Origin: Escherichia coli
GTDB lineage: Bacteria; Pseudomonadota; Gammaproteobacteria; Enterobacterales; Enterobacteriaceae
Assembly (NCBI RefSeq): GCF_013122565.1
Contig: NZ_CP053258.1
Length of the DNA: 64,000 nucleotides
Strand: one strand, 5' to 3'
A program made the position numbers and the translations under genes. The notes under the pieces were generated by a model. That model ran no database searches. It was not told the DNA's origin and worked only from the letters and a program-made list of their open reading frames with translations. This document shows, piece by piece, positions 55,607 through 56,012 of the stretch (its first letter is position 1; each line of letters opens with the position of its first letter).

Positions 55607-56012
55607 GTATACCTTTATGTCCTCACTGTCATATATTTCCATAATAATTAACCACCAAGCATCCATTTAATGAATAAATACAGTGCCATAAATGCCCAAG
55701 TAATAAGCACACATTTAGCCTGAAACATTATCATCCATGTCACCAAATCGTTTATTTAGTAAGATAAAACTAGCATATTCGTAAGATAAAAAATGCACAT
55801 GGTAATCAAGAAATGATATTATTATTTTTTTGATGTAAAACTATTTAGCTTTAAAATTCATTTTTTCAACATATAGAGCATTCATTTTATGAATGCAAAA
55901 AACATACCTGACACACAAATTATTCTCCTCTGTAATATTTTCTCATTAACACTCTGTTTACCCAACATGCGCTCCGCACTACACTATGTGGGCATTTTTT
56001 TAAGAGGTGGTA

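Follow-up and report, generated by a model that had tools for sequence, protein, structure and literature searches.

AT-rich DNA separating yajR from a divergent Sel1-repeat gene of Escherichia coli: a probable two-way control region with a candidate operator and the probable remains of an older operon

Anatomy of the yajR-Sel1 intergenic region

The region described here, positions 55607-56012 of a 64-kb stretch of Escherichia coli DNA (the window), separates two divergent genes: yajR (56013-57377, + strand), whose ATG occupies 56013-56015, and a gene for a 311-aa secreted Sel1-repeat protein (54671-55606, - strand; annotated in RefSeq as tetratricopeptide repeat protein), whose start codon lies at 55606. 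An earlier note had drawn attention to its composition and repeats, to its position in front of both genes and to a difference from K-12, and these descriptive claims hold. With 30.3 % G+C as against 51.4 % for the whole window, it is the lowest-GC stretch of the 64 kb. It contains a direct repeat, GTAAGATAAAA, at 55759-55769 and 55781-55791 (22 bp from start to start), as well as a perfect palindrome, GCATTCAT-TTT-ATGAATGC, at 55878-55896, the end of which lies 116-117 bp upstream of the yajR ATG. K-12 differs in possessing just a 148-bp cyoE-yajR spacer, identical in EDL933, M-17, STEC276, and N3.

The low G+C content is most pronounced in the distal part of the region, which precedes the Sel1 gene on the - strand (55607-55925, 27.6 %), and it is peculiar to Escherichia, where the equivalent regions range from 27.5 to 35 % G+C, compared to about 46 % in Salmonella and in a Citrobacter-like genome. 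A periodicity of 11 bp in AA/TT steps was also detected in the AT-rich region (P = 0.009, with six periods tried and no correction applied). E. coli strains differ more from one another in this intergenic DNA (94.6 % identity) than at the synonymous sites of the Sel1 gene (97.4 %), so much of it may be unconstrained. Literature searches returned no expression, transcription-start, or binding data in islet-bearing strains, and nothing on the BL21, REL606, or HS locus tags or on yajR in connection with H-NS or Sel1. The control region is previously undescribed, and it is an ordinary one with a tidy evolutionary explanation, apart from one palindromic motif that resembles a real regulator site. 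What we offer is a testable map of an unannotated control region carried by a quarter of E. coli genomes, the practical value of which is modest.

An accessory islet between cyoE and yajR

The region belongs to a 2.3-kb islet with an overall G+C content of 42.7 %, in which the itaR-itaT toxin-antitoxin pair accompanies the 311-aa Sel1-repeat gene, the order on the + strand being cyoE, itaR, itaT, the Sel1 gene (- strand), the AT-rich intergenic region, and yajR. Of 5426 complete E. coli genomes, 1367 (25 %) possess the islet, among them those of HS, of O104:H4, of B strains such as BL21(DE3), and of many B1 strains. In all cases it is chromosomal, as a plasmid search yielded only mislabelled chromosome records of megabase size (>1 Mb) and no true plasmid copies.

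Comparison with K-12, which had been proposed as a way to find the insertion junction, was precise on the left side and approximate on the right. On the left, cyoE ends at 53593 and is followed by its terminator (53609-53632), directly past which the islet begins with a sharp junction at 53634-53636. On the right, K-12 and islet alleles are ~97 % identical again from the yajR ribosome-binding site onwards, and over the ~87 bp before that point (55926-56012) they are homologous, albeit strongly diverged. The K-12 sequence CTTAGCATTAGAAACATATCC was considered as a remnant of the palindrome flank ('AGCATT...AAACATA'), but the homology was not significant (P = 0.16); hence, the right junction is not placeable more closely than about 55900-55930.

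The toxin-antitoxin module of the islet has been studied before. itaR (53778-54089, + strand) is the antitoxin side of this type II pair, and itaT (54073-54615, + strand) encodes a GNAT toxin that matches PDB 7BYY, the structure of ItaT (PMC7367177), over its full length (E = 1.6e-117) and is near-identical to it. The itaRT pair, which makes up the neighbouring genes of this islet, is known from E. coli HS and BL21(DE3) (PMC6125619); the Sel1 gene and the Sel1-yajR intergenic region are without description in the itaRT papers (PMC6125619, PMC7367177). Our analysis thus ties the studied module to its genomic neighbourhood. At the opposite end of the islet, the itaRT genes have a promoter of their own, and the palindrome found there is another one, ATACGG-N7-CCGTAT, which occurs twice within 53647-53724. 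The predicted promoter (TTGACA-17-TAAATT, 53673-53701) is flanked by the two palindromes that share this sequence, at 53647-53673 and 53706-53724, which are likely the ItaR-ItaT operators. Autorepression by the toxin-antitoxin complex was shown in the ItaT paper, and a search of its text for 'operator' and 'palindrom' found neither.

In the 311-aa protein, a signal peptide and three Sel1 repeats are followed by a C-terminal half without a Pfam match. Its last ~150 residues (encoded by 54671-55140) have no match in either Pfam or NCBIfam and recur in long and short paralogues from several genera; they constitute an uncharacterised domain. The N-terminal repeats match PDB 4BWR, the secreted Sel1-like-repeat protein EsiB/c5321 of E. 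coli (E = 5e-39). In contrast to EsiB, however, the protein has only three repeats together with the 150-residue C-terminal part that lacks a Pfam family, and it belongs to a paralogue family tied to the cyoE-yajR interval. Close homologues are confined to Escherichia, and relatives of ~60 % identity occur in other enterobacteria. In some islet-bearing strains, such as WW2 and 2012EL-2448, the Sel1 gene is annotated as frameshifted, which suggests ongoing decay.

Sel1 genes beside yajR in several genera

The same divergent yajR-Sel1 arrangement as in the window is found in E. albertii and in Escherichia sp. MOD1-EC7003. Four other Escherichia sequences (three cryptic-clade isolates and one genome with a protein labelled E. 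coli by NCBI; hereafter the two-gene clades) carry an extra Sel1 gene of 499 aa, such that a 393-bp intergenic region is flanked by yajR on one side and, on the other, by the 499-aa gene followed by the 311-aa gene. The two proteins are paralogues of each other, and the shorter aligns to the C-terminal 280 residues of the longer. Beyond Escherichia, two Sel1 genes are divergent from yajR in Salmonella, and a Citrobacter-like metagenome genome (L029), whose YajR is 89 % identical to that of Citrobacter, has Sel1 genes of 478 and 308 aa at the same position. In Citrobacter itself the cyoE-yajR interval contains two DUF1493 genes, and in Kluyvera a hok/gef gene. Across the Enterobacteriaceae examined (these three genera and the metagenome enterobacteria L029, L031, and L037), the interval is a variable hotspot that holds one or two Sel1-family genes, two DUF1493 genes, a hok/gef toxin gene, a lone TacA-like antitoxin gene, or an IclR-type regulator gene together with a Sel1 gene.

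As Sel1 genes lie beside yajR and cyoE in several genera, the locus must be old, and the distribution reads as that of an old locus subject to repeated loss rather than of a fresh insertion. In line with this, no direct or inverted repeats of at least 9 nt bracket the islet, and no mobility signatures (integrase, tRNA, target duplications) were found at it. The earlier note had instead regarded the AT-rich DNA as part of a horizontally acquired insertion, a claim that the synteny with yajR and cyoE in Escherichia, Salmonella, and other enterobacteria and the lack of such signatures speak against. In its full form, this explanation envisages a recent horizontal island silenced by H-NS, with the repeats as H-NS nucleation or counter-silencer sites and with yajR rewired by the insertion. 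We consider it rather doubtful, although several observations agree with it: the G+C content of 27.6 % against a background of 51 % and the 42.7 % of the islet as a whole, the accessory status of an islet found in 25 % of E. coli genomes, the restriction of the AT-richness to the Escherichia versions, and the resemblance of the GATAAAA within the direct repeat to the GATAAA core of the H-NS motif TCGATAAATT. The latter is the high-affinity motif reportedly described by Lang et al. in 2007. However, a scan of 55607-56012 for this motif, allowing up to 2 mismatches, gave no match, which weighs against the explanation as do the age of the locus, the missing flanking repeats, integrase, and tRNA, the 'plasmid' hits that turned out to be megabase chromosome pieces, and the state of the yajR promoter discussed below. 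The sole perfect match to the motif in the window lies inside itaT, at 54182-54191. Compared by sequence alone, the region resembles the H-NS-bound upstream regions of accessory genes in E. coli and Salmonella in its very low G+C content, its accessory gene, and its many promoter-like hexamers, but it differs from them in being part of a locus that is syntenic across genera and in containing no high-affinity motif.

How loss may proceed at this locus is illustrated by the O157:H7 strain TR01, whose scar allele joins islet position 53671 directly to 55946. This allele has kept the leftmost 38 bp of the islet along with a yajR promoter of the islet type, whereas itaRT and the Sel1 gene are gone; this scar indicates that deletion occurs within the islet. 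About six genomes show partial matches similar to that of TR01, while EDL933, also an O157:H7 strain, has the K-12-type allele. The locus neatly illustrates how repeated loss and the replacement of alleles, and not insertion, can maintain an accessory region, and the phrase 'K-12 lacks the islet' denotes a derived state.

Probable remains of a deleted first gene

The distal AT-rich DNA has a recognisable counterpart in the two-gene clades. Positions 55630-56100 align at 77-78 % identity with the DNA that separates yajR from the 499-aa gene, whereupon the homology jumps to the start of the 311-aa gene; the part preceding the yajR promoter, 55630-55925, is about 77 % homologous to the DNA upstream of the 499-aa gene. 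At the jump, comparison with both gene ends in three of the two-gene sequences (L033, L035, and L036) exposed a relic of the missing gene, the mini-ORF ATGACAGTGAGGACATAA (55615-55632, - strand), in which the old start-codon region is fused to the last codons and stop of the 499-aa gene. The junction in the window reads ATATATG-ACAGTGAGGACATAA-AGGTATAC-ATG, that is, the 499-aa start region, the last codons and stop, and then a short spacer before the 311-aa gene.

This junction is common to the window, E. albertii, and MOD1-EC7003. Given a shared junction on the one hand and the occurrence of the two-gene form in distant genera on the other, a single deletion of the first gene is the simplest reading, according to which the 499-aa gene was removed almost exactly from start codon to stop in the lineage of the window, in E. 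albertii, and in one cryptic clade. The end points that we infer for this deletion derive from the alignment of both gene ends. The ancestral operon would then have comprised two genes for secreted Sel1-repeat proteins (about 499 and 311 aa), whose old control region now stands directly before the 311-aa gene. Since its main part, 55630-55925, is homologous to the upstream region of a gene that was lost, 55607-55925 would represent an orphaned operon promoter and leader. Altogether, we regard 55607-56012 as probably a two-way control region, in which a conserved yajR promoter is joined to the leftover promoter and leader of an older Sel1 operon.

Two haplotypes of the yajR promoter

On the yajR side, a scan with a position weight matrix predicted a sigma-70 promoter, TTTACC-17-TACACT (55957-55985, + strand), which is the second-best sigma-70 match on this strand and from which transcription would start near 55992, ahead of a ribosome-binding site AAGAGG that together with the ATG spans 56002-56015. 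Neither the hexamers nor the 17-bp spacing varies among the eight sequences that were compared (K-12, the window, E. albertii, a two-gene clade, Salmonella, Citrobacter, Kluyvera, and L029). Directly upstream of the -35 hexamer lies a block, TCTGTAATATTTTCTCATTAACACTCTG (55926-55956, + strand), that is near-invariant in the Escherichia islet alleles and, as TGTAATATTT.CT.ATTAAC, still recognisable in Salmonella, Kluyvera, and L029. Possibly, it serves as an UP element or an activator site.

Across the core of the promoter (55957-56012), the K-12 type is 88 % identical to that of Citrobacter and only 76 % to the islet type, although in the coding part of yajR the difference is about 2 % among E. 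coli strains and about 18 % to Citrobacter. A K-12 promoter nearer to that of Citrobacter despite a ~2 % coding difference implies that the 'empty' allele is not a simple deletion product. Rather, two deeply diverged yajR promoter haplotypes exist in E. coli, and the comparison suggests that the K-12-type allele is old or imported. As the upstream block and the promoter are widely conserved, the islet-linked version of yajR is the common one, and on these alignments it is K-12 that is unusual at the yajR promoter and not the allele of the window. The suggestion of the earlier note that the region might rewire yajR relative to K-12 consequently finds no footing, given that the islet-type block is the widely conserved version and that the two alleles do not differ in their core hexamers.

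Just upstream of this block, E. coli B carries a 9-bp tandem duplication, TCTGTAATA (NEBExpress, positions 2800-2830 of L005, corresponding to about 55926-55935 of the window).

A palindrome with a second copy

The earlier note had proposed both kinds of repeat as candidate regulator binding sites; the proposal proved tenable for the palindrome and found no support for the 11-mer as such. The latter lies within a tandem 22-bp repeat (55756-55799, 17/22 identical, 77 %) that holds both copies of GTAAGATAAAA, and only 0.9 % of dinucleotide-preserving shuffles of the region produced an exact direct repeat of this length (11 nt or more) inside 40 bp. Nevertheless, the perfect repeat is allele-specific, as about 17 of the 1350 E. 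coli genomes with the islet, and no more, match this segment at 99 % or more, and the majority allele has GTGAGATAAAA as its first copy. Every Escherichia allele, even at an overall identity of only ~77 %, preserves a pair of GATAAAA motifs 21-22 bp apart (55763-55769 and 55785-55791 in the window), of which the second reads GGTAAAA in E. albertii. The perfect duplication of the 11-mer is largely incidental.

By itself, the palindrome (site B, 55878-55896, a candidate operator) is not significant, as 12 % of dinucleotide-preserving shuffles contained a perfect hairpin arm of at least 8 nt. A degenerate copy, GCATCCATTTAATGAATAA (site A, 55659-55677), lies 53-71 bp upstream of the Sel1 start codon, and a second copy with at most 3 mismatches elsewhere in the intergenic region was seen in only 0.3 % of shuffles (P about 0.003). 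The two sites share CAT(C/T)CATTT(A/T)ATGAAT and agree at 15 of its 16 positions if site B is taken in its E. albertii form. The arms of site B are invariant in E. albertii and MOD1-EC7003, whose intergenic alleles are otherwise ~84 % identical to that of the window. Furthermore, a perfect 12/12 match to ATTCAT-N3-ATGAAT lies 6-20 bp before the first Sel1 gene of L029, where the rest of the intergenic region is unalignable; from base composition, we estimate the chance expectation of this motif in the 441-bp region at about 5e-5. Of site A, only the right half is well kept. In the two-gene clades, site A persists with 1-2 mismatches and site B is absent, as is ATTCAT-N3-ATGAAT from Salmonella and the IclR-linked loci, so that site B is not universal in these operons. 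A dyad conserved beyond its background and recurring at orthologous loci, in spite of its absence from the two-gene clades and Salmonella, makes ATTCAT-N3-ATGAAT a credible operator for a dimeric regulator.

These findings bear on the rival explanation that low-complexity AT-rich DNA and a small tandem duplication gave rise to the repeats and the palindrome by chance, in which case neither would have a sequence-specific function and the region would be a plain promoter and leader. The P value of 0.12 for the palindrome alone, the confinement of the perfect 11-mer to about 17 genomes, the duplication in E. coli B, which demonstrates that such duplications arise in the region, and a polymorphism within E. 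coli exceeding that of synonymous sites are all as this explanation would have it. We nonetheless deem it unlikely, because it leaves unaccounted for the second palindrome copy (P = 0.003), the perfect ATTCAT-N3-ATGAAT at the orthologous position of a different genus where nothing else aligns, and the retention of both GATAAAA motifs in alleles that are only 77 % identical overall.

A role of the palindrome in RNA was likewise weighed, namely as a hairpin of a small RNA or of a structured cis-regulatory leader (riboswitch or thermometer), with 55973-55992 and its T-run as the terminator. The hairpin is indeed stable (-8.7 kcal/mol, z = -3.95), the best sigma-70-like match of the region (TTGATG-16-TAAAAT, 55830-55857) lies on the + strand, and 55973-55992 is terminator-like. 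However, these hexamers are not conserved between alleles; the hairpin at 55955-56005 folds no better than shuffles (z = -0.42) and overlaps the conserved yajR -10; the Sel1 leader does not outperform shuffles either (z = 0.37), with almost no covariation in the alignment fold; a search of 53500-56200 with the Rfam 15 covariance models gave no match at E up to 1; and small ORFs are broken by indels. Such an RNA is thus highly improbable. The ORFs in question, one of 45 aa on the + strand that starts at the palindrome ATG and others of 14 aa on the minus strand over the repeats, were dismissed as genes, since other alleles have indels or lost start codons. The palindrome was also rejected as an intrinsic terminator, its stem having 3 G-C pairs, with A6 coming after it on the + strand and TCTATATGTT on the - strand.

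Finally, the palindrome might mark the boundary of the islet as a relic of recombination or of a mobile element (REP/MITE-like, a site of integration, or a hotspot of deletion). It does lie about 30-50 bp from where homology to K-12 resumes, in a region with several deletions (the 499-aa gene, the TR01 scar of O157, and the K-12 allele). Against this, it is single-copy in every carrier (1350 places in 1350 genomes), which excludes a dispersed repeat of the REP, ERIC, or MITE kind, it has no terminal repeats, the K-12 match to its flank is not significant (P = 0.16), and the end points of the TR01 deletion (53671 and 55946) lie away from it. We therefore give this origin hardly any credence.

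A possible mode of control

As to a regulator that might bind the palindrome, the only regulator gene inside the islet is itaR, whose promoter palindrome is unrelated to site B. A by-eye comparison with the consensus sites of CRP, FNR, Fur, ArgR, MetR, the LacI family, Cra, PhoP, PhoB, CpxR, RcsAB, IHF, NsrR, and sigma-54 revealed none that fits. In the sites of ArgR, MetR, LacI, and Cra, the order of the half-sites is opposite to that in the palindrome, and the half-sites ATTCAT/ATGAAT are not known to match a consensus. A 'CTGAAAC' at 55720 matches only the left half of the Cra site.

With regard to the preferred reading of a two-way control region, we envisage that yajR would be read from the conserved TTTACC/TACACT promoter, and that Sel1 transcription would start somewhere inside the AT-rich DNA, where the Sel1 strand has only weak sigma-70-like matches, which the alleles do not share. 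A dimeric DNA-binding protein may recognise ATTCAT-N3-ATGAAT at site B and at the degenerate site A and thereby control Sel1. The centres of the two sites are 219 bp apart (about 21 helical turns; 217-219 bp between alleles), and their midpoint coincides with the centre of the GATAAAA pair, a coincidence noticed post hoc. Two phased GATAAAA A-tracts midway between A and B would be compatible with the geometry of a repression loop. In addition, coating by H-NS/StpA is plausible from the low G+C content alone, in which case the region may be silenced.

This arrangement invites comparison with the gal repressosome, in which the operators OE and OI, spaced 113 bp apart, enclose a midway HU site. 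As in gal, two related dyad sites flank an AT-rich promoter-containing segment with a bend-prone element exactly midway, but the sites lie about 219 bp apart, a cognate repressor is neither known nor encoded in the vicinity, site B is lineage-specific, and the parallel is drawn from sequence only. Pushing the comparison further, one could imagine ATTCAT-N3-ATGAAT as the operator of an uncharacterised enterobacterial regulator of secreted Sel1 proteins and possibly of yajR and, in view of a near-perfect copy in front of cyoA (at 48488), of cyo, whose two sites bracket the A-tracts in a gal-repressosome-like loop over the orphaned operon promoter; this we put forward as a speculation with a slim chance of being correct. 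Should the palindrome prove to be a true operator, it would provide a handle on the timing of expression of an uncharacterised family of secreted Sel1-repeat proteins.

Elsewhere in the window, a near-perfect copy of the ATTCA-N5-TGAAT core occurs as ATTCAGCTAATGAAT (GATTCA-N5-TGAATC, 48488-48502). As about 0.14 such hits would be expected in 64 kb by our calculation from uniform base frequencies, this copy may be due to chance; it is located upstream of cyoA, in the second lowest-GC stretch of the window.
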